In this document: piece after piece, positions 3,105 through 37,710 of the stretch
How positions within the stretch are numbered: position 1 is the stretch's first letter
How the letters are laid out: every line of letters starts with the position of its first letter
Sequence record: OZ035783.1
Source: Kagunavirus PDP21P8
DNA length: 43,594 nucleotides
Direction: 5' to 3' (one strand)
Translations under genes and position numbers: made by a program
Notes under the pieces: generated by a model
Told to the model about the DNA's origin: nothing
The model's database searches: none
The model's input: only the letters and a program-made list of their open reading frames with translations

Positions 3105-3136
3105 TGAATAGTACCCTATTATATTGGTGTCTGCAA
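3105..3136 (-). promoter_or_regulatory. early-type promoter with AATAG-N4-CTATT operator
   Basis: minus-strand reading TTGCAG-17 nt-TACTAT; inverted repeat GAATAG-tacc-CTATT overlaps -10; 23 bp identical to site at 14310-14332. Confidence 0.5.
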
Positions 3137-3180: not shown

Positions 3181-4224
3181 ATGAGCTTACTTACATCTCT
3201 AATCAGCCACCAGATATGGCTGCAACGCACCGCATCCGGCGAGGTGAAAGACCTCGCGCCGTTCATCCATGAGATGCGGGATGAAATTAAACGGCAGGTG
3301 CTGTTATTCGGTGACGACAGCCGCAGCGCCGCGCGACTGAATAAACTGTTACGTGACCTGGAAGAAGCGCTAACTGGACTTACAGGTGACTGGCAAACAA
3401 AGCTGACAGAAGACCTTAAGGAACTGGCGGCGTATGAGGCTGAGTGGAACGTAAAAACGCTGACGACTAACGTTAACGCGGAATTTGTTACGCCTACCGC
3501 CGAACAAGTGTGGGCCGCCGCCGAGTTCCAGCCCGTATCGTTAAGCGACAAACCGGCCGACTTCGCTAAACTGATGTCGGGCTGGGGTGAAACCGAAGTC
3601 GCGCGCCTTGTAACCGGCGTTAAGATGGGCTTTGTGCAAGGCCAGACAACACGGCAGATTGTTAAGAATATTGTAGGCGCTGGTGGACTAGCGGACATAT
3701 CCGAGCGCAATGCGGCTACTGTAATCCGCACCGCGCTGTCTCACGTGTCAAACGAAGCCCGTAACGAGACGTACCGCCAGAATGACGACATTATCGAGAA
3801 GTACGAGTGGGTGTCTACGCTGGACAGCCGTACCAGTACTATTTGCAGAGCCAGGGACGGGATGACGTGGGAAATTGGTAAAGGGCCAATGCCCCCCGCC
3901 CATCCGAATTGTCGAAGTACCACGGCACCGGTGATAAGTTCCGAGTTCGACTTCCTCGATAAAGGCGCAAAACGCGCGGCTAAGGGTGCAGACGGCGGTA
4001 CTCAGGTAAGCGCAGACACCACTTACTACGAGTTCCTGAAACAACAACCGGCATGGTTTCAGGATGAAGCACTCGGGCCGACCCGCGGTAAGATTTTCCG
4101 CAACAGCGGTATATCACCGGAAGAGTTTCGCGTAATATCTGTAGATGGTTTCGGGAATCCGCTGACGCTTAAGCAGATGGCGGAACTCGATAAACGTGTT
4201 GCTGATTATCTGAAAGGGGAATAA
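3181..4224 (+). CDS. head morphogenesis protein (Mu F / SPP1 gp7-like)
   Basis: ATG 3181 with SD AGGAGGG; C-terminal PAHPNCRSTT motif resembles the conserved H-x-NCRC of Mu F-like proteins; follows portal. Confidence 0.65.
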   Translation: MSLLTSLISHQIWLQRTASGEVKDLAPFIHEMRDEIKRQVLLFGDDSRSAARLNKLLRDLEEALTGLTGDWQTKLTEDLKELAAYEAEWNVKTLTTNVNAEFVTPTAEQVWAAAEFQPVSLSDKPADFAKLMSGWGETEVARLVTGVKMGFVQGQTTRQIVKNIVGAGGLADISERNAATVIRTALSHVSNEARNETYRQNDDIIEKYEWVSTLDSRTSTICRARDGMTWEIGKGPMPPAHPNCRSTTAPVISSEFDFLDKGAKRAAKGADGGTQVSADTTYYEFLKQQPAWFQDEALGPTRGKIFRNSGISPEEFRVISVDGFGNPLTLKQMAELDKRVADYLKGE

Positions 4225-7730: not shown

Positions 7731-8081
7731 ATGGTTGATGTAATTAAACGTCGCATTACTGGGGTCTCTGACGACTCCCCGGCTGATGGTCAGGTAGAAA
7801 TCGACATGGCAAATATCTCACCGGCATCTTTTTCTATCCCACTGAGCGCTACCACAGCAGTTACAGCCGGGCAGACTATGACACTGACCGTAGTTGTTAC
7901 CGGTGGCCTAGCTCCGTACACCTACCAGTGGTACAAGGATAACAACGCTATCGCGGGGGTTACCGCAGCTAGCTACGCTAAAGCGTCAACCACTACCGCC
8001 GATTCAGGTACGTATAAAGTGGTTGTTCACGATGTGTATGGTAATATTATCTCCAGCAGCACCGTAGCAACTGTGTCTTAA
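7731..8081 (+). CDS. Ig-like domain protein (possible capsid decoration)
   Basis: APYTYQWYKDNNAIAG...SGTYKVVVHD matches the same Ig-like signature as 4224-4685. Confidence 0.5.
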   Translation: MVDVIKRRITGVSDDSPADGQVEIDMANISPASFSIPLSATTAVTAGQTMTLTVVVTGGLAPYTYQWYKDNNAIAGVTAASYAKASTTTADSGTYKVVVHDVYGNIISSSTVATVS

Positions 8082-10181: not shown

Positions 10182-10594
10182 TGGGCTACTTTGAGGACTT
10201 AACAAAAGCGTTCGACGTGCCGCTGGTAGCCTTCGGAACCGCCAACGGCATCAAGGTTGCGCTTGAAAATATCGACGCGCCGACGTCAACAGATACGCCG
10301 TATCTGGCGAGTTACATGTTACTGGCTGATACGGAACAGGCTGACTTATTCTTCACCGAGCAACGCTCTGGTATTTATCAGGTCGACATTAACTACGCAT
10401 CGGTGAAAGGTAGCGCGCCAATCAATAAAATGGCAGACTTACTTAACACGGCGTTTAAAGCAGGTAAGTCATTTTCGCGTAACGACATCTGCGCCGAGGT
10501 TCAATCGGTTAGCCTGGGGCCGCTGATTGTAGAAAACGGATGGGCCAAACGGCCATTGTCAATTAACTTTATTGCATTCACCAAGAGGCTGTGA
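10178..10594 (+). CDS. tail terminator/completion protein (putative)
   Basis: 138 aa ORF immediately upstream of the major tail gene. Confidence 0.4.
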   Translation: MMGYFEDLTKAFDVPLVAFGTANGIKVALENIDAPTSTDTPYLASYMLLADTEQADLFFTEQRSGIYQVDINYASVKGSAPINKMADLLNTAFKAGKSFSRNDICAEVQSVSLGPLIVENGWAKRPLSINFIAFTKRL

Positions 10595-11766
10595 ATATGG
10601 CTACAACTCCTTTTAAGGGCGCGAATACCGCGCAATTCTACGTGGCGGAAGTGACCCCGGGCGTAACACCGGCAAACCCGGTATGGTCGCCGTTGCGTAA
10701 CACTGGCGGCGTTCCTGCGGTAACCCGCGATGCGCTGACTTCCAACGAGCTGGACGGCAGCCGTGAAACTACATCCATCCGCACCGGCAACAAGCAGGTT
10801 AGCGGAGAATATGCTATCGAGCTTAGCTCCCGTAGCCAGGATGATTTCCTTGCGGGTGCTATGACTTCTACGTGGCAGGATGGGGTAACCTTATCCGCTG
10901 TCGGTATTACGGTAGACCCGGTAGCAAAAACTTTCACACGTGGCACTGGCAGTTTCATTACTGACGGTGTAGAGGTCGGGGACCTTCTGTATTTTGATGC
11001 TTTAACTGGCGATAACTCTAAGCCGTTCATCGTTACTGCCGTAACAGCTACTGTGGTTACTGGCGCAGGCATTCAGCACACCCTTACCGCCGAAGGCCCT
11101 ATTGAGACCGATGGAAAAACTGGCGATAAACTGGAAACAGGTAACGCATGTAAGACGTTCTCCATCCTGACATGGTTCAAAGGGCAGTGCGGGAACCCCG
11201 ACGCGTACATGTTGACCAAAGGCGTGGAAATCTCCGGTTTCACCATTGAACAGGCCGTAAACGCGATGGTGACAGGCAGCTTCCCGTTCATCGGCCTGAG
11301 TCAGGAGATTCTTTCCGCGCCGCCAGCAGGTTCCGACTTCTCTCAGGTCACATTCACTGACGAGCCGTTCTCTTCTGTAGATGTGTCCGTGTTCGACGGT
11401 TCTACCCCGTTGCGTTGCGATACTCTGACCATCACCAACGACAACGGTGCTTCCGCGCAGTTTGAACTTGGCAACAGTAGCGTTGCGTTCGTGGAACGTG
11501 GCCGCGCGGCTAACACCTTCTCCATCTCCGGTAAGCTGTACGACATGGCTATGATTCAGAAGTTTATCAACGAACAGCAGGTAGAGATTAACTCTATTCT
11601 GGCGGGGGTAAACGGAGCTATGTCTTTCAGTCTGAAACGTGCGGAACTTACGGCGGTCACACCAGAAATATCTGGCCCGGAATCAATTACCCAAAGTATA
11701 GAAGGGCAGTCCACAGGCAACCAGTATCAGTCGTCTATCGTAATTCAACGTATTAGTTACGTATAA
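10591..11766 (+). CDS. major tail protein
   Basis: 391 aa ORF followed by a strong terminator; position before chaperone/tape-measure genes. Confidence 0.55.
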   Translation: MNMATTPFKGANTAQFYVAEVTPGVTPANPVWSPLRNTGGVPAVTRDALTSNELDGSRETTSIRTGNKQVSGEYAIELSSRSQDDFLAGAMTSTWQDGVTLSAVGITVDPVAKTFTRGTGSFITDGVEVGDLLYFDALTGDNSKPFIVTAVTATVVTGAGIQHTLTAEGPIETDGKTGDKLETGNACKTFSILTWFKGQCGNPDAYMLTKGVEISGFTIEQAVNAMVTGSFPFIGLSQEILSAPPAGSDFSQVTFTDEPFSSVDVSVFDGSTPLRCDTLTITNDNGASAQFELGNSSVAFVERGRAANTFSISGKLYDMAMIQKFINEQQVEINSILAGVNGAMSFSLKRAELTAVTPEISGPESITQSIEGQSTGNQYQSSIVIQRISYV

Positions 11767-11873: not shown

Positions 11874-12506
11874 ATGTTTCTGTATGAAGAATTTGAAAAG
11901 ATACCCGCGTCAAAACGGGCGGTATCATACCGTAAAACAATCTGCGGTGTCGGTATCAACGACGCTGATTTTACCGCTAGTATTTTCAACGGCAAAAAGT
12001 CTGTTAATCACCCAGTATATGATATTTGGTATGCGATGATATTCAGGTGCTACCACGGGGTCGCCAAGCACCCAACATACGCAGGTGTGGTAGTGTGCGA
12101 AGACTGGCTATATTTCTCCAACTACTTTAAATGGTATAAAGATAATTACGTAGATTGTTGGCATGTAGACAAGGATTTACTTACAGATGCCAAAGAATAC
12201 TCACCGGAGACATGCATCTTTGTCCCAAGAGTTTTAAACAACTTCCTAACCGACAGCGCAGCGGCCAGAGGAAACCTACCAATAGGCCTTACTTATAGAA
12301 AAACAAACGGCAAGATACGGTGCCGTGTTAACAATCCCATAACCGGGGTACGGGAAAACTTAGGCGATTTTATTGACTTGGACGAAGCCATCAAGGCCAG
12401 AACGTTGCGGAAATTGGAAATAGCAGAAGAACTTAAGCCGCTTATGGATTCCATAGACGGGAGAATATGCCCAAGAGCCGTTTCGGTAATTAATTCACAA
12501 CGATAA
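11874..12506 (+). CDS. AP2-like DNA-binding domain protein, possible homing endonuclease
   Basis: C-terminal GLTYRKTNGKIRCRV...LGDFIDLDEAIKA resembles AP2 domain; gene is visibly AT-richer than flanks; no HNH motif identified. Confidence 0.35.
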   Translation: MFLYEEFEKIPASKRAVSYRKTICGVGINDADFTASIFNGKKSVNHPVYDIWYAMIFRCYHGVAKHPTYAGVVVCEDWLYFSNYFKWYKDNYVDCWHVDKDLLTDAKEYSPETCIFVPRVLNNFLTDSAAARGNLPIGLTYRKTNGKIRCRVNNPITGVRENLGDFIDLDEAIKARTLRKLEIAEELKPLMDSIDGRICPRAVSVINSQR

Positions 12507-12534
12507 GAAAAAGGCCCCTTTCGGGGCCTTTTTC
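12507..12534. terminator. bidirectional rho-independent terminator
   Basis: AAAAA-GGCCCC-tttc-GGGGCC-TTTTT between convergent genes. Confidence 0.6.
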
Positions 12535-12537
12535 TCA

Positions 12538-12765
12538 CTAATCAATGTTACTCCTGTACTCCCGTAACTTTTCAAGACTTTCAATTGCTTCGTTAAGGTC
12601 CGTGTCTGCGTCCTTATGCCCTCTGCCACCCATGCATAACAGTTTCTTTAACGCGTGCTGTAACGCGGGGTCGTGGATAACGAAGGCCCTTAGCACATCA
12701 TAAACATCACATGTAATGGAATCGCCTGCGGTGTTGGTGAGTGTATGGTCATATTTTGAAGTCAT
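12538..12765 (-). CDS. small protein, DUF3310-like (tentative)
   Basis: 75 aa; pattern D-x-YDV...HALKKLL..GGRGHK..DL.EA resembles the DUF3310 phage family from memory; ATGA-coupled to upstream gene. Confidence 0.4.
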   Translation of the reverse strand: MTSKYDHTLTNTAGDSITCDVYDVLRAFVIHDPALQHALKKLLCMGGRGHKDADTDLNEAIESLEKLREYRSNID

Positions 12766-13892
12766 CCCAGCATCTCCGGTGAAATAGTTAAACGTGCGAC
12801 CTCGCCAAATTCGGCGCTATAAGTAATTACATTTGCACTACGGCCCGACATCCAACCTCCGCGGGAGGCGTAGGCGTCTTTAGCCGCTAAGGTGCGGTGT
12901 TGCTCAACAATCATGTTACGGCTTTCTACAATCTTCTGGTGGTGCAGATGGCCTACGTGGGCGTAGCTGTAAACACTCTCGCCGAACGCTTTACGGAACT
13001 TGGCAATCATAACAGGTTCAATAGCGTCGAATCGTGCTTTATGCCCGTGATGGAAGAACAGCGTCGTTTTGCCGTGTTGCACCATCTTGTAAACATCCGG
13101 TGACGTATCGACGAACACACGCGGCTCATTGTCATACAGCGTACTGAACATCTCAGCCAACCAAATCATGCCACTTTCGTCGTGATTCCCTTGCACGATA
13201 AGCAAGCGAACATTTTTATGCTTAACCAGCGCCATATCGACAACACGGCGGACCATGCGAATCATGTAGCGGACAAGTTTCTGGTAACGGGTGTCGGCGT
13301 CAAGGGCGTGACCGCTTGCAGGTGTAACGGCAACCAGACTATCGAAGTGCGCGAAGTCGCCCAGCAGGTTAATAACCCCAGTCCCCGCATCCGGTGCTTT
13401 CTGGAATGCCGCATCGAACCAACGGGAGAACAGGTCTTCTGCAATCTTCATATCCCAGTCGTCGCCACTCTCGTCGGCCCAGGCCAGCATACCGAGATGG
13501 AAATCAGACACAGTGTAAAGGTTGAGTAGCTTGTCGTCCCGTTTGGCGCGAACGGCTTTAACAGGAGCAACGGGGGTAATCTCCGACTTCATGCCCTCGA
13601 TTATGGCTTTCATCAACTCGACCTGACGTTCGGCATCGGTGTCGGTCTTAACCCATTGCAACTTAGTGTTGCCGAACTCATCAACCAGCGACGATGTGCC
13701 TTTAATCTTGTAGCCATCTGGTACAAGGTGGCTAACGTCACGCCCGTGGCCTACACCTTTCTTAGCCAGCTTCGCTTTACGGATACGAATAACTCGGTCT
13801 GAGATGCCGTATTTACGGGCGATGTCTACGTTCTTCATCCCGGCGTTCAATTCTTCCTGTAATTGTTCGTCGGTTATTTTCTTCCGGGCCAT
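12762..13892 (-). CDS. HTH-fused calcineurin-like metallophosphoesterase
   Basis: 376 aa; N-terminal HTH (DIARKYGISDRVIRIRKAK); motifs SDFH, LLGDFAHFD, QGNHDES, HHGH, GHLHH match the D-x-H / GD / GNH[DE] / GHxH metallophosphatase set; SD GAGGAAG. Confidence 0.7.
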   Translation of the reverse strand: MARKKITDEQLQEELNAGMKNVDIARKYGISDRVIRIRKAKLAKKGVGHGRDVSHLVPDGYKIKGTSSLVDEFGNTKLQWVKTDTDAERQVELMKAIIEGMKSEITPVAPVKAVRAKRDDKLLNLYTVSDFHLGMLAWADESGDDWDMKIAEDLFSRWFDAAFQKAPDAGTGVINLLGDFAHFDSLVAVTPASGHALDADTRYQKLVRYMIRMVRRVVDMALVKHKNVRLLIVQGNHDESGMIWLAEMFSTLYDNEPRVFVDTSPDVYKMVQHGKTTLFFHHGHKARFDAIEPVMIAKFRKAFGESVYSYAHVGHLHHQKIVESRNMIVEQHRTLAAKDAYASRGGWMSGRSANVITYSAEFGEVARLTISPEMLG

Positions 13893-13957
13893 GCTTACTT
13901 CCTCGTGTTTAGGATTTGTCCTATTTAACCACAGTGCATTCCTTTAAATAAAGGCGA

Positions 13958-14284
13958 CTATTTACTTTCTGCGCCTATTGCCCACCCAGTCATTACCATT
14001 TGCAGGCGGGTAGCGGTCAGTAGGCTGTAAAACGCGTCTCCGTTTTTCTCTACAGAACGTATTACCGTGTATGTTACGGCTTGCGGAGGCAGGCCCGATT
14101 TACCAACCTCTACGGCTGCCTCACACTCGCGAACGGTAGAGTCCTTAAATGCCTTTACAATAGTAGGGTCGGCTCTATCAAGCACACCAGAAGTCATAAG
14201 AACGGATTCACTAAACACCTGTTCACACGGAGACCCAAAAGTAGCAAAAGACATAAAACCAAGAGCTAACACTAATTTACGCAT
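13958..14284 (-). CDS. secreted protein (signal peptide, no lipobox)
   Basis: 108 aa; N-terminal MRKLVLALGFMSFATFG hydrophobic signal; two Cys; SD GAGGAA; first gene of antisense cassette. Confidence 0.5.
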   Translation of the reverse strand: MRKLVLALGFMSFATFGSPCEQVFSESVLMTSGVLDRADPTIVKAFKDSTVRECEAAVEVGKSGLPPQAVTYTVIRSVEKNGDAFYSLLTATRLQMVMTGWAIGAESK

Positions 14285-14309
14285 AATTATTTCCTCAGTA
14301 AGTTACAGG

Positions 14310-14341
14310 TGAATAGTACCCTATTATATTGGGGTGTGCAA
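14310..14341 (-). promoter_or_regulatory. early-type promoter with AATAG-N4-CTATT operator
   Basis: minus-strand reading TTGCAC-17 nt-TACTAT, nearly identical to promoter at 36243-36274; ends ~26 nt upstream of the ATG at 14284. Confidence 0.5.
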
Positions 14342-14448
14342 GTAGTGTGCTAGAATAAGTTTGCGCCTAGTGTCGCACACGAAAAGCGGGTGGTTCCCGT
14401 CTGGCGCGTCAACCTTAACCTGTAACCTCTTAACCAAAGGACTAAAGA

Positions 14449-14865
14449 ATGAAACTTTCTGATTTTTATTTTGCTGACCGCCATGCTGTAGGCACTAAAA
14501 TGCCTATCCTTCTGCCGAGTGGTAAAGACTCCGGTGAATGGTTGCAGGTCATTGGCCCAGATTGTGATGCTGGCGTTCGTGCGGGCCGCGCCTACACAAC
14601 GGCAATTCGACGCCTTACGGAAGAACTTGCGCCGTTAGATAAAGAGTGTGAGGCACTGAATAATTGGGCACGCTACAACGATGAGAAGGGTTGGCGGGTG
14701 ATGGACCTGAACAAGCAGCTTGCCGTGGAAATTGTCACCGGTTGGTCATTCGACGAACCGTTCAGCAAAGAGGCTCTGGCTAACCTGTTTGACCAATACA
14801 GTGGGCTGGCGGAGGCCGTAGTTAAGCATCACACCGACAGTCGCGAGAAACTCTCGGAAAAGTAA
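14449..14865 (+). CDS. tail assembly chaperone
   Basis: 138 aa ORF immediately upstream of the tape measure gene; followed by overlapping -1 frame ORF. Confidence 0.5.
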   Translation: MKLSDFYFADRHAVGTKMPILLPSGKDSGEWLQVIGPDCDAGVRAGRAYTTAIRRLTEELAPLDKECEALNNWARYNDEKGWRVMDLNKQLAVEIVTGWSFDEPFSKEALANLFDQYSGLAEAVVKHHTDSREKLSEK

Positions 14866-15227
14866 AAGCGCTGTATGAATTTGCGCAATGGTGCTTTGTC
14901 GACCGCCACAAACGTAAGCAATTCGACGACATAGCGGCAGGCCACCAGGCGGCTTTGATTGCAATGGGCGTGATTAAAGAACCGCAGATGAAAGAAGCGA
15001 CGGGGCCTGAATGCCCCGTTTCTCTTATCGACGTGTTCGAGAAATACCGTGCCATTAAATTCCTACAGCGCGAAACAGATGATACTATCGTTATAATCCC
15101 GCGCGATGCGCTCAAATGGCAAGATTTGGTAGCGTTTCGTGATGTCGCCGGTTACGGCATAAGTTTGTTCGAAGCCGAGGTTATCATGGGCTTAGACGGA
15201 ATATTTGAGGGCAGAGAAGATGGCTGA
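14826..15227 (+). CDS. tail assembly chaperone -1 frameshift extension
   Basis: -1 frame is open from 14826 (40 nt overlap with upstream ORF) with no ATG until 14964; candidate slip site G GAA AAG at 14856-14862. Confidence 0.4.
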   Translation, partial: ASHRQSRETLGKVKALYEFAQWCFVDRHKRKQFDDIAAGHQAALIAMGVIKEPQMKEATGPECPVSLIDVFEKYRAIKFLQRETDDTIVIIPRDALKWQDLVAFRDVAGYGISLFEAEVIMGLDGIFEGREDG

Positions 15228-17529
15228 TACGGCTTCCCTAATTGCCAGAGTAAAAACAGAAGGCGCTGATGTAGCCGCTAAACAGCTTGACGCTATGGCG
15301 GCATCCGCAGACCGTGCGGACACATCCGTAAACAAACTAACGCCGGATGTTAATAAAGTAAACTCCGCTACGTCTAAAGCGGCTTCTGACGGTTTCGCTA
15401 AATTCCGTAACGCCGCCGGGCAGGTAGGCTTCCAGGTGCAGGACATGGTCGTCCAGTTGCAGTCCGGCACGTCTGCATTCGTAGCAATCGGGCAACAAGG
15501 CTCTCAGCTTGCGGGTGCTTTCGGCCCTGGTGGCGCGGTGCTTGGGGCCGTAATTGCTCTTGCGTCAGCAATCGGTGGTGTCCTGTATAAATCGTTAACC
15601 GAAGCAGAAGGCAGTTCAAAAGACCTCGAAGCCGCACAGAAACAGCTAAAAGATACTTTCCAGCAAACGGCGTCCGGCTCTCTCGAACTGACAGACGGCC
15701 TTATCCAGCTTACCCAAATCAGCAGAGAAGCGGCGGAGACTCAGCTTGCTTTGGCTAAGGCTAACGCTGACCTTATCGCGCAGCAAACAGCTAAAGCCGT
15801 TCGTGAGGATGCAGAATCATGGGAGACATGGAAAGCATCCACGGCATCGGCTATCAGCCAGTATGACGCGCTGGTCTCTAAGGGCGCGGATGTAGGCGAC
15901 ACGTTAGAAAAACTAGGCGGCACTTACGAGGGTAATATCGTCGGCGTCAACATGCTGGCACAGAATATCGCAGAGCTTAGCAGTAAGTTTGGGGTTAACC
16001 GTGACCAGGCGCTGGAGATGATAGCGGCGCAGAGTGCGTTTAACAAAGAGCCAACCGCCGAGAATGCCCGTCGCATCGCCGATGTGTTTACCGACTGGCT
16101 CGGTAATACAAAACAGTTGAACCCGGAACTTATCCGCCTGACCGACAATGCCAACAAGAACGCCACGGCACTGGAGAACGCGGAGAAGTCCGCAAACGCG
16201 GCGGCGGAGGCCCAAAAGAATCTTGGTCGTAACGTCAACTCAACAACGCAGAGATTCCAGGAACAGAACGAAGCTATCGTCAAAAACCAGCAAATCGCTA
16301 TCTTAAGTGACCGCGAGCGTATCCGTGCGCAAGCTGAACTGGATAAGCAGGCGTTCGCTAAACGTGAAGCTGTCACCAAAGAACAGATCGCCGCGTATAA
16401 TGCTGCGCGTGACACGGAAGCACAACAAGACATCGCTCGCATCGACGCTACCGAAAAAGCGAAGGCCGACCGCGAGGCCAAATCGAACGAGAAACGGCTG
16501 GCGGCACAAGCCAAACGCGAAGAAACGGCGGCTGAACGACAGAAAAAAGCGGCGGAAGATTTCCTGGCTACTGTCGACCGCACAACCGGAGATGAGATTT
16601 CGCGCATTACCGCTGCGGAAGAGCAGAAACTGGCAAAACTGGAAGAGTTTAACAGAGCTGGGACTATAAGCCAGCAGCAATACGAAAACGCCAGGACGCA
16701 GATTATGCTCTCGGCCGAACAGGCCCGCCAGGAAGAACTCGCCAAGCGAGAGAAAGAACGACAGGAGAAGAACCAGAAAGGCGAAGACTTCATGGCTCAG
16801 ATTATGGGCCAAAACGCCGCTGAGCTTGAGCTTCTGGAGATTCAGGAGCAACAAAAACTGGACGTTGCTGACAGGTATCGCGAACAGAATCTGATTAACG
16901 AAGAACAGTACCAGGCCGCGGTTAATGCTATAAATGACCAGTACGCGTTAAAACGTGCTAACGCAACGGGTAACGCTTTTGGCATGATGGCGGATAATAT
17001 TAAATCGTCGCTTGGCGAAGCGTCTACTGCGTACAAAGCTTTCGCTATTGCGCAGGCCACTATTGCCACATACACCTCCGCTATAGAGGCTTATAAATCT
17101 GCATCGGCTATCCCTATTGTTGGATGGGTGCTCGGGCCTGTAGCCGCCGCCGCCGCCGTAGCCGCGGGGCTCGCAAACATTGGCAAAATTCGTTCGGCCC
17201 GTGAGCAGGGCGGTAACTTAGCTGCAGGTCAGTTATCTACTATCGCGGAACGTAACAAGCCAGAAGTTATTATGCCTGCAGGGGCGTCACGCGTCCGTAC
17301 CGCAGAACAGATGCGCCAGATTATGGGCGAGAACGGCAACAAGTCAGGCGGTGACAGCGTTACAATCGTCAACAACACCACCGGACGTGTTGATTCCGCC
17401 GTTACAGAGCGTGACGACGAAGGGCGGTTACGTGTTATCATCAGCGAAACAGTATCGGCGGCGTTACAAGACAGCAACAGTGCAATCTCTAAGTCACGCC
17501 GTGCTACACGAAACCAGCCGGGGTATTAA
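15220..17529 (+). CDS. tape measure protein
   Basis: ~770 aa, Ala/Gln/Glu/Lys-rich coiled-coil repeats, Gly-rich hydrophobic segment near C-terminus; ATG 15220. Confidence 0.8.
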   Translation: MADTASLIARVKTEGADVAAKQLDAMAASADRADTSVNKLTPDVNKVNSATSKAASDGFAKFRNAAGQVGFQVQDMVVQLQSGTSAFVAIGQQGSQLAGAFGPGGAVLGAVIALASAIGGVLYKSLTEAEGSSKDLEAAQKQLKDTFQQTASGSLELTDGLIQLTQISREAAETQLALAKANADLIAQQTAKAVREDAESWETWKASTASAISQYDALVSKGADVGDTLEKLGGTYEGNIVGVNMLAQNIAELSSKFGVNRDQALEMIAAQSAFNKEPTAENARRIADVFTDWLGNTKQLNPELIRLTDNANKNATALENAEKSANAAAEAQKNLGRNVNSTTQRFQEQNEAIVKNQQIAILSDRERIRAQAELDKQAFAKREAVTKEQIAAYNAARDTEAQQDIARIDATEKAKADREAKSNEKRLAAQAKREETAAERQKKAAEDFLATVDRTTGDEISRITAAEEQKLAKLEEFNRAGTISQQQYENARTQIMLSAEQARQEELAKREKERQEKNQKGEDFMAQIMGQNAAELELLEIQEQQKLDVADRYREQNLINEEQYQAAVNAINDQYALKRANATGNAFGMMADNIKSSLGEASTAYKAFAIAQATIATYTSAIEAYKSASAIPIVGWVLGPVAAAAAVAAGLANIGKIRSAREQGGNLAAGQLSTIAERNKPEVIMPAGASRVRTAEQMRQIMGENGNKSGGDSVTIVNNTTGRVDSAVTERDDEGRLRVIISETVSAALQDSNSAISKSRRATRNQPGY

Positions 17530-26541: not shown

Positions 26542-26871
26542 TTATAATTCCTTATATTGTTGGGGTATGTGCTTACTATAATAGTCTGCTATTAGGGTGT
26601 CAATCTGTTTTATCGAACCAACGACAAAAACATTCGCGCCACGTTTACGCATCCGCTCGTGCTCGCGTAACTGGTGTGGGTCTGGCTTCGTGCTTTCATC
26701 TTTCTTAACCTCAACGAACCAGATGATGCCGCCGGGGAGGATTACCAACAGGTCGGGCGCTCCGTTTCGGCCCTCATACACTATCTTACGAACGAGGCCC
26801 CCCAGGGCCTCGAATCGGTCTTTCGCGTATTTCTGTACGCGGCCCTCTTTAGTCATGGGCGTAGAACCCAA
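26542..26871 (-). CDS. VRR-NUC domain nuclease
   Basis: GAPDLLVIL...WFVEVKKDE matches PD-(D/E)xK core of VRR-NUC proteins. Confidence 0.65.
   Translation of the reverse strand: MGSTPMTKEGRVQKYAKDRFEALGGLVRKIVYEGRNGAPDLLVILPGGIIWFVEVKKDESTKPDPHQLREHERMRKRGANVFVVGSIKQIDTLIADYYSKHIPQQYKEL
26575..26603 (-). promoter_or_regulatory. sigma70-like promoter with operator in spacer
   Basis: minus-strand TTGACA-17 nt-TATAGT; spacer carries AATAG-tctg-CTATT; overlaps 3' end of VRR-NUC gene. Confidence 0.45.
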
Positions 26872-30226: not shown

Positions 30227-30255
30227 AATATAATAGCTAACTATTCAGGTGTCAA
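30227..30255 (-). promoter_or_regulatory. sigma70-like promoter with operator in spacer
   Basis: minus-strand TTGACA-17 nt-TATATT; spacer contains TGAATAG-ttag-CTATTAT. Confidence 0.5.
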
Positions 30256-32764: not shown

Positions 32765-32793
32765 ACTATAATAGCGAACTATTCACTTGTCAA
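32765..32793 (-). promoter_or_regulatory. sigma70-like promoter with operator in spacer
   Basis: minus-strand TTGACA-17 nt-TATAGT; spacer contains AATAG-cgaa-CTATT; forward face carries TATAAT toward the XRE gene. Confidence 0.45.
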
Positions 32794-36242: not shown

Positions 36243-36274
36243 TTGCACACCCCAACATAATAGGATACTATTCA
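36243..36274 (+). promoter_or_regulatory. early-type promoter with AATAG-N4-CTATT operator
   Basis: TTGCAC-17 nt-TACTAT with AATAG-gata-CTATT overlapping -10; ~30 nt upstream of ATG 36306. Confidence 0.5.
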
Positions 36275-37678: not shown

Positions 37679-37710
37679 TTGTACACTGGGATAGAATAGG
37701 CTACTATTCA
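37679..37710 (+). promoter_or_regulatory. early-type promoter with AATAG-N4-CTATT operator
   Basis: TTGTAC-17 nt-TACTAT with GAATAG-gcta-CTATT; 28 nt upstream of ATG 37739. Confidence 0.45.

Follow-up and report, generated by a model that had tools for sequence, protein, structure and literature searches.

What purpose is served by the short direct repeats that lie directly upstream of the tail assembly chaperone gene in Kagunavirus PDP21P8 (sequence record OZ035783.1)? The window analysed here is the whole stretch of 43,594 nucleotides (nt), and the genome is of the virulent Kagunavirus-like (Guernseyvirinae) type of Escherichia coli siphophage. A sequence-only reading had described the repeats at 14411-14435 as AACC TTAACC TG TAACC TCT TTAACC, and direct reading of the sequence gives the same letters. 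Their position, next to the ribosome-binding site of the gene starting at 14449 and where rightward transcription resumes past a minus-strand island, also agrees with the gene layout. Because the genes at 12293-14284, just upstream of the leader, are on the minus strand, rightward transcription must begin within 14285-14362. The same reading had proposed either a binding array for an activator of late transcription or an incidental occurrence. The interpretation favoured here, with moderate confidence, is a different one, namely a translational control element acting in cis, in which the folded leader of the chaperone messenger RNA (mRNA) carries a decoy site and a second site close to the Shine-Dalgarno sequence.

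By themselves the repeats are statistically unremarkable. The genome contains 107 TAACC on both strands, compared with 88.7 ± 9.8 after shuffling, and 4 of 100 shuffles reach 107. Three triple 5-mer clusters within 21 nt are found on the plus strand, two of which are the repeat locus, and 200 dinucleotide shuffles yield 1.0 ± 1.0 (maximum 5), which places a triple cluster at about chance level. The repeats stand above chance because they are conserved across the subfamily, and the suggestion that they are incidental is thus not borne out. A set of 75 distinct real leaders, from phages of the Guernseyvirinae and from metagenomes, was gathered via the chaperone protein, by two pattern scans of viral contigs and by one metagenome scan with the hairpin-2 loop left unspecified, and every one of them keeps the pattern ACC-N-ACC-N-ACC in its tail. 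By blastn, the leader is present in 483 isolated-phage records (358 of Salmonella, 103 of Escherichia and a few of other hosts), whereas none of 5,426 E. coli genomes gave a match; the Guernseyvirinae branch is thus without prophage copies in complete E. coli genomes. A pattern scan of 185,579 species genomes returned five hits, in Arcicella and others, all of which were rejected as chance matches without the P1 stem of the fold described below.

The order of elements is conserved as well. Wherever a variant is readable through to its start codon, the ACC-rich tail comes next after the junction, then the Shine-Dalgarno sequence and the chaperone start codon, and the link between tail and chaperone holds also in lineages with an N-terminally extended chaperone. 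This lysine-rich extension of 11-40 amino acids was seen in the metagenomic lineages L014, L020, L022-L024, L047, L172 and L174, in which the leader precedes the upstream start codon and not the conserved MK(L) start. Between kagunaviruses, the non-coding block 14320-14470 is 87-100% identical, compared with 37-87%, mostly 50-70%, in the flanking coding DNA. In a comparison of the window with L010, L028 and L034, the island of high identity runs through the leader and ~20 nt into the chaperone gene. Two chaperone alleles with ~51% protein identity are found behind one and the same leader in kagunaviruses. Since differing alleles and flanks surround a conserved leader, the leader also marks a mosaic (recombination) boundary. 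Copy number can change too: the leader of L078 (IMGVR_UViG_3300010279_000003, ~2496-2600) has an additional TTAACC unit, AACCTTAACCTTAACCAGTAACCTCTTAACC, so the number of repeat copies differs between close relatives.

The segment preceding the repeats is predicted to fold as RNA into a three-way junction (Table 1), with the layout GCGCC-UA-(hairpin 1)-GAAAA-(GCGGG..CCCGU)-CU-GGCGC; the TAACC repeats start 3 nt past this core. A permissive cmscan matched the core to positions 4-54 of the 71 in the Rfam model int-alpA (RF02996), with a score of 27.7 bits that is below the curated 35.8. The E-value of the match was 3.5e-4 in a search of 171 nt and 8e-4 in one of 401 nt. A scan of the whole window against Rfam at gathering thresholds gave no hits. 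Applied to an alignment of 44 leaders, RNAalifold returned the same int-alpA-type junction topology, with compensatory changes in 10 of 12 pairs. When a pseudoknot is included in the structure, 96.3% of the alignment cells are paired, compared with 81.0% after shuffling and 34-49% with the pairing partners slid, and 12 of the 17 pairs tested show compensatory changes on both sides. The pair at the base of hairpin 2 is G-C in 35 rows and G-U in 9. As G-U pairs exist only in the plus-strand RNA, the fold belongs to the sense RNA. No variation is seen across the 44 leaders in the UA, GAAA and GC elements or in the U before P1. Taken together, the predicted junction structure of the leader is well supported by the alignment.

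The hairpin-2 loop has the consensus (N)UGGU(U/C)(N), in which GG-U is the same in each of the 44 aligned leaders, and its predicted pairing address is complementary to the downstream AACC repeats, named R0 to R3 in Table 1. With R1, the loop can form the pairs G14392-C14420, G14393-C14419, U14394-A14418 and U14395-A14417. Over the alignment, 90.9% of the cells of this helix are paired, with 11 changes on both sides compared with 2.4 in shuffles, and 0 of 500 shuffles were as good. The fourth loop base (alignment column 37) and its partner in R1 (column 60) are U-A in 34 rows, C-G in 9 and another combination in 1, a change from GGUU/AACC to GGUC/GACC. In several lineages the flanking bases co-vary too and lengthen the helix in a way of their own, as in the loop/R1 combinations CGGUCU/AGACCG, UGGUCA/UGACCA, GGUCC/GGACC, GGUUG/CAACC and UUGGUUA/UAACCAA, and the duplex of a loop with the R1 of its own lineage is stronger, at -5.52 kcal/mol, than the permuted combinations at -4.91 ± 0.14 kcal/mol (0 of 2000). 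The covariation of loop and R1 indicates a pseudoknot.

The other two conserved copies behave differently from R1. R2 was tried as a partner of the loop and ruled out: in the 44 leaders, 72.7% of its cells are paired, there are no double changes and 464 of 500 shuffles were as good. It is missing altogether in L118 and L089. R3 is predicted to pair with the loop from U14391-A14436 through U14395-A14432, which gives 5 base pairs (bp) with -4.7 kcal/mol and makes it a better match than R1 in PDP21P8. It is almost invariant (UUAACCAA); its complementarity to the loop extends to 95.9% of the cells, 4 double changes occur and 9 of 500 shuffles were as good, and it reads UGACC in the lineage with the loop CGGUCU. 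The CCUCUU between R2 and R3 was considered as a mimic of the anti-Shine-Dalgarno sequence and rejected, the spacer being not conserved (CCGAC, CCUGU, CCUAU or CCCGC elsewhere).

To our knowledge, no function has earlier been proposed for int-alpA, an orphan motif. It was reportedly described by Weinberg et al. in 2017, and Rfam files it as a small RNA (sRNA). The main text of the discovery paper does not discuss the motif, and the sole mention that a literature search on int-alpA returned was an entry in a list. The relation of the phage leader to int-alpA is reciprocal, in that a model built from the phage leaders detects true int-alpA RNAs at 19-23 bits and each model recognises the other below threshold. 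The gathering score of 35.8 bits is reached by none of 20 diverse Guernseyvirinae leaders and by 17 of 20 other phage copies. Both groups have the same three-way junction, which in the Guernseyvirinae leaders is supported by covariation, and near-identical junction letters, CUAG ... CGAAAAGCGG ... CCG(C/U)CUG. The conserved junction nucleotides of int-alpA, C-UA-G, (C)GAAAAGCGG and CCGCCUG, are found in the window as CCUAG, CGAAAAGCGGG and CCCGUCUGG, with one G-U replacing a G-C. In both, the loop of hairpin 2 has its complement in the 3' tail, and the RNA precedes a Shine-Dalgarno sequence and a start codon; the complementarity of loop and tail as a trait of int-alpA is our own reading, as the model output of cmscan is without pseudoknot annotation. 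The true int-alpA RNAs studied were those of the viral contigs L060 and L069 and of one E. coli island, with the loop/tail combinations GCCUUA/UAAGGC, UCCCUU/AAGGGA and UCCUUCG/CGAAGGA. The loop GCCUUA matches UAAGGC just past P1 and, a second time, the Shine-Dalgarno sequence AAAGGU, and the loop UCCUUCG matches GAGGG as well as the Shine-Dalgarno stretch CGAAGGA.

The Guernseyvirinae leaders also differ from int-alpA. Their P1 has 5 bp and not 8, their hairpin 1 has 3 bp with the loop UC(G/A)(C/U)N, and their hairpin-2 loop has 5-7 nt and not ~9. The pairing letters are GGUU/AACC, whereas the commonest in int-alpA are CCUU/AAGG, which resemble the anti-Shine-Dalgarno sequence. There are three or four copies of the target, the last of which abuts the Shine-Dalgarno sequence, compared with two in int-alpA, the last of which overlaps it. 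The genetic context is the tail assembly chaperone of a virulent siphophage, whereas other members follow an integrase or precede replication or regulator genes. The position between an integrase and an alpA-type gene is not seen in the window, where the RNA lies between the minus-strand island and the chaperone gene; the E. coli island members have the order int, RNA, an open reading frame (ORF) of 307 amino acids and AlpA. Many int-alpA members above threshold are likewise without the integrase/alpA context, which is thus not strictly defining for int-alpA. The intA-alpA region of CP4-57 in E. coli K-12, tried as a reference locus, is without an int-alpA copy. In the E. coli copies (L186 2496-2600, L187 and L188, on islands at yicC), the Shine-Dalgarno sequence is within the loop of a small hairpin, the stem of which co-varies (GCGU/ACGC, AGCG/CGCU) and points to a contact of this loop with that of hairpin 2. 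The E. coli island RNA begins ~10-30 nt past the integrase stop codon, without an obvious promoter.

A wider view of the family was obtained by scanning for the exact core, CTAG..GAAAAGCGG..CCGCCTG, which is found in more than 120 viral contigs of 33-68% G+C and yields 93 variants with 59 different loops. Almost all of these variants have two direct repeats complementary to the loop. A first site for the loop lies ~0-19 nt from P1, with a complementary run of at least 5 in 57 of the 59 loop types and a mean run of 6.4, compared with 4.68 ± 0.13 in permuted combinations (0 of 1000). A second site follows at a median of 14 nt beyond the first, with a mean run of 4.98 compared with 4.11 ± 0.14 (0 of 1000), and in 34 of 50 cases it overlaps a Shine-Dalgarno-like motif with a start codon. 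Examples are the loop UCCUACA with the sites UGUAGGA and UGUAGGAGG, AUCGUCA with UGACGA and GACGAGG, CCCUGAU with AUCAGGG and CAGGGGG, and CUGUGA with UCACAG and UCACAGGAGG. R3 corresponds to this second site. The AT-rich viral contig L285 contains two int-alpA-type RNAs, at 4114-4153 and 7811-7850, with the loops ACUUCGCCC and CUUCAUUCA; the two sites downstream of each RNA are the only ones that its loop matches, which looks like orthogonal addressing within one genome. Two AT-rich family members gave no blastn match among isolated phages. The genes downstream of other int-alpA-type RNAs encode replication initiators in 6 of 10 cases, and also an HNH endonuclease and a Rha-type regulator. 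Judged from these comparisons, the TAACC repeats are the Guernseyvirinae version of a two-site design that is family-wide, and they are repeated directly because one and the same loop has to find its match at both sites. The Guernseyvirinae element appears to work like int-alpA, from which it most probably descends.

In the mechanism we propose, the chaperone/tape-measure mRNA starts, exactly or nearly, with a structured leader, and the repeats make up the single-stranded 3' tail of this leader. R1, which is transcribed first, would capture the loop as a decoy in a pseudoknot. With the loop on R1, R2, R3 and the Shine-Dalgarno sequence would be unpaired and the ribosome could load. If the loop paired with R3 instead, the junction would be pulled against the Shine-Dalgarno sequence and chaperone initiation would decrease, and with it that of the genes translated downstream of the chaperone. 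We infer the alternation of the two pairings, the assignment of the "on" state and the factor that sets the balance, for which a conserved host factor, temperature or a second RNA copy are candidates. More broadly, and only tentatively, int-alpA-type RNAs may be widespread loop-addressed translational riboregulators of phages and satellites, with an invariant core that a universal host component presumably reads, an evolvable loop, a decoy and a target fused to the Shine-Dalgarno sequence, which in cis or as copies excised and acting in trans would gate one key gene, be it a replication initiator, a regulator or, as in PDP21P8, the chaperone/tape-measure operon, without cross-talk among elements that reside together.

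Several observations weigh against this cis-acting control. The folding energy of the leader, -20.2 kcal/mol, is unremarkable (z = +0.64 compared with shuffles), so thermodynamics alone would miss the leader, and the phylogenetic relatedness of the aligned sequences means that the shuffle counts overstate significance. In PDP21P8 itself, the helix of loop and R1 has 4 bp only, with -3.5 kcal/mol. R2 is conserved and yet has no explanation in a model of pairing. The covariation of R3 is weak, with the fifth pair lost in 6 of 44 rows and p = 0.06 in the duplex energy test, and the invariance of R3 could reflect ribosome loading and not pairing with the loop. R3 adjoins the Shine-Dalgarno sequence without overlap, unlike the second site in most int-alpA RNAs. 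Finally, the effect could have the opposite sign, by analogy with the pseudoknots of the IncI/IncB plasmid rep genes.

A possible but unlikely alternative is that the leader acts in trans, as C4 and CI RNAs do: the junction would be excised as a stable small RNA, and its loop would bind R1 and R3 on other copies of the mRNA, so that translation of the chaperone operon is limited by transcript dosage. The filing of int-alpA as an sRNA fits this explanation, as do the hypervariable loops on a near-invariant core (59 among the 93 variants) and the two copies in L285, in which the match of each loop to its own sites only is expected of specificity determinants that avoid cross-talk. Replication initiators and Rha-type genes, often found downstream elsewhere, are typical targets of antisense dosage control, and C4 and CI RNAs likewise derive from a leader and hit repeated sites that include a ribosome-binding site. 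However, the first site lies only ~0-19 nt past P1 and is the better match, which favours intramolecular capture. A cmscan of 14300-14470 at E-values up to 10 listed int-alpA and two chance hits and no match to the C4 family. A terminator-like U-run after P1, as an sRNA might have, was rejected as a general feature, since only 9 of 59 loop types and none of the 44 Guernseyvirinae leaders have one. The Guernseyvirinae loop, moreover, hardly varies (GGUU or GGUC).

It is improbable, though worth weighing against loop-controlled translation in cis, that the leader is a static scaffold and landing pad. The junction/R1 pseudoknot would then be constitutive and protect the 5' end or recruit the 30S subunit, with R2 and R3 as an unstructured, A/C-rich standby or enhancer region and no switching. 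A 5'-terminal stem is a stabiliser of mRNA, and CA-rich leaders enhance translation. The centroid structure predicts the tail to be unpaired, the lack of a pairing signal at R2 and the weak covariation at R3 agree with such a scaffold, and a -10-like hexamer 6 nt before P1 would set the fold at the extreme 5' end. That the core stays near-invariant in very different hosts points to a partner common to all of them, which could be the ribosome, another host factor or a ligand; its invariance in contigs of 33-68% G+C would fit a ligand or host factor of universal occurrence. A scaffold leaves unexplained, however, why a second loop target is fused to the Shine-Dalgarno sequence across 59 unrelated loops (0 of 1000 permutations) and why R3 changes to UGACC in the lineage with the loop CGGUCU.

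The array for a transcription factor of phage or host, bound at the level of DNA and activating late transcription, is very improbable. The repeats are regular and direct, with a spacing of 7-8 bp, and lie near the promoter region. However, they are downstream of both candidate promoters, 54-84 nt from the TATATT -10 box and 59-79 nt from TAGAAT, and their conserved unit is ACC on one strand only, within an RNA fold with G-U pairs. The covariation of R1 with a hairpin loop ~25 nt upstream is expected of RNA pairing and not of DNA repeats that bind a protein. A recurrence of the repeat before other late genes, as an activator array would predict, was not found: in relatives the leader is always before the chaperone, and neither the repeats nor the whole leader precede any other gene of the genome, where the TAACC triple occurs once. 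TAACCAAAGGA with up to 2 mismatches is not enriched in the genome (14 compared with 11.2 expected), and a covariance-model search of the genome with filters off found the leader as a single copy, the next best hit having an E-value of 0.37, and E-values obtained with a shortened calibration are only approximate.

The DNA upstream provides a better candidate for a regulator at this level, namely the promoter with an inverted repeat in its spacer, 85-100 nt upstream of the TAACC repeats. The motif AATAG-N4-CTATTA has 16 strand-hits genome-wide compared with 0.52 expected, and 0 of 100 shuffles were as rich. It is part of a promoter-like module with at least 7 copies, (TTGACA or GTTACA)-N4-AATAG-N4-CTATTATAtT, often followed by GGnGTnTGCAAG; the module combines a sigma-70 -35/-10 pair with an inverted repeat of 5 bp in the spacer, the aligned copies carry TTGACA -35 boxes, and the whole looks like a co-regulated set of promoters with a built-in operator. 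In the record of a relative, the equivalent stretch is a promoter predicted by PHIRE on the opposite strand. The element TGcTAGAAT lies at ~+12 to +20 of the start predicted for the upstream promoter. A -10-like hexamer (TAGAAT, TATTCT, TAAACT, TAAAAT or TAATAT), often preceded by TG, is found 6 nt before P1 in most of ~30 diverged lineages, with outliers at 2-10 nt. TGcTAGAAT could be a second, tandem promoter, from which transcription would begin with the first P1 base, or else a sigma-70 pause or -10-like element within the leader as transcribed. A Kagunavirus RNA-seq paper gives no transcript ends for the leader region.

That the repeats are a chance occurrence in a functionless spacer has next to no probability: by chance, each genome strand should have about one triple 5-mer cluster, but this one is conserved in 75 variants and 483 phage records, covaries with the loop and lies in an island of high identity. 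An idea of a transfer RNA (tRNA)-like structure or RNase P substrate, based on the UA after P1 and on ACCA motifs, was also discarded, since the ACC repeats are not directly after P1 and the Rfam scan, which included the tRNA model, found nothing.

Table 1. Features of the chaperone leader and its surroundings (positions in the window)
Feature	Position	Strand	Remarks
Sigma-70-type promoter GTTACA-N17-TATATT	14302-14330	+	promoter scan; predicted start ~14337
Inverted repeat AATAG-N4-CTATT	14312-14325		within the spacer of the 14302-14330 promoter
Copies of the promoter-like module	3107-3125, 14312-14330	+	
Copies of the promoter-like module	26580-26594	both	
Copies of the promoter-like module	30227-30245, 32765-32783, 36254-36272, 37690-37708	-	
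Extended -10-like element TGcTAGAAT	14348-14356	+	ends 6 nt before P1
Three-way-junction RNA core	14363-14407	+	45 nt; Rfam int-alpA match, RNAalifold, pair counts
P1 stem	14363-14367 with 14403-14407	+	then UA
Hairpin 1	14370-14372 with 14378-14380	+	loop UCGCA 14373-14377
GAAAA linker	14381-14385	+	
Hairpin 2	14386-14390 with 14396-14400	+	then CU
Hairpin-2 loop UGGUU (pairing address)	14391-14395	+	complementary to downstream AACC repeats
R0, CAACC	14410-14414	+	non-conserved upstream copy; TTACC, TATCG or TTTCC in close relatives
R1, TTAACC	14415-14420	+	predicted pseudoknot partner of the hairpin-2 loop
R2, TAACC	14423-14427	+	conserved ACC; candidate spacer or third weak site
R3, TTAACCA	14430-14436	+	second loop-complementary site, one base from the Shine-Dalgarno sequence
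Shine-Dalgarno AAGGA	14437-14441	+	from sequence; AAAGGA directly 3' of the repeats
Tail assembly chaperone gene	14449-14865	+	ATG 14449-14451; 138 amino acids; PHROG 15027, E 2.6e-65
Chaperone -1 frame extension ORF	14868-15227	+	downstream of the chaperone gene
Tape measure gene	15205-17529	+	after the -1 frame extension

The region is 98.6% identical to phage L AB-2017, with a boundary of the match at ~14309. An insert at 11874-14284 breaks the tail module, separating a tail protein gene (10591-11766) from the chaperone gene; it starts with an HNH endonuclease on the plus strand (11874-12506) and continues with the minus-strand island. The latter comprises a small ATPase-like fragment, an SbcD/Mre11-like DNA repair exonuclease (12762-13892) and a protein of 108 amino acids (13958-14284). 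At the equivalent position relatives have another gene, annotated as superinfection immunity, and the content of the island varies among kagunaviruses. The -1 frame extension ORF contains, at 14999-15020, a hairpin rich in G+C, GACGGGGCC-TGAAT-GCCCCGTT, which is flagged as terminator-like on both strands; it is a candidate attenuator, or an RNA structure tied to the region of the G/GT frameshift product.

Kagunavirus and Jerseyvirus phages are widely isolated for the therapy of E. coli and Salmonella infections, and the tail-assembly operon of these phages is now seen to be headed by an unannotated, strongly conserved, predicted regulatory RNA that no Rfam family detects at its curated threshold. 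The swapped specificity, from CCUU/AAGG to GGUU/AACC, and the two-site pattern over 59 loops provide a concrete hypothesis for int-alpA that can be tested with reporters. If the loop does choose between a decoy and a site beside the Shine-Dalgarno sequence, int-alpA would be cis-regulatory and not a free-standing sRNA, and it would offer a compact natural building block, conserved in its core and programmable in its loop, for orthogonal control of translation.

Three known kinds of system can be set beside the leader. Riboswitch platforms that sequester the Shine-Dalgarno sequence, for example the pseudoknotted preQ1 and SAM-II classes, resemble it in their conserved folded core, in a pseudoknot strand beside the Shine-Dalgarno sequence and in the logic of alternative pairing. 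Unlike these, the Guernseyvirinae leader is without a known ligand, has its variable part inside the core, in the loop, and precedes genes that are non-metabolic. In the rep genes of IncI/IncB plasmids (Rfam PK-repZ and PK-repBA), a pseudoknot activates translation and an antisense RNA blocks the pseudoknot. There, too, initiation depends on a long-range pseudoknot, in which a hairpin loop pairs with a few bases directly before the Shine-Dalgarno sequence of the gene under control, but the folds are unrelated and have neither a three-way junction nor a decoy copy. As the IncI/IncB pseudoknots activate, the sign of the effect in the phage leader cannot be assumed. The C4 antisense RNA of phages P1 and P7 and the CI RNA of satellite P4 are small structured RNAs from the leader of the operon that they control. 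Their loops are complementary to repeated targets in the same transcript, one of which covers the ribosome-binding site, and differences in loop and target define their specificity. The Guernseyvirinae leader shares with them a loop that matches repeated targets in the same transcript, but resembles them neither in sequence nor in structure. C4 and CI are excised by RNase P and act in trans on immunity functions, whereas for the phage leader, analysed here by computation, excision and action in trans would be no more than possible, and its first target, unlike theirs, lies within reach of an intramolecular pseudoknot.

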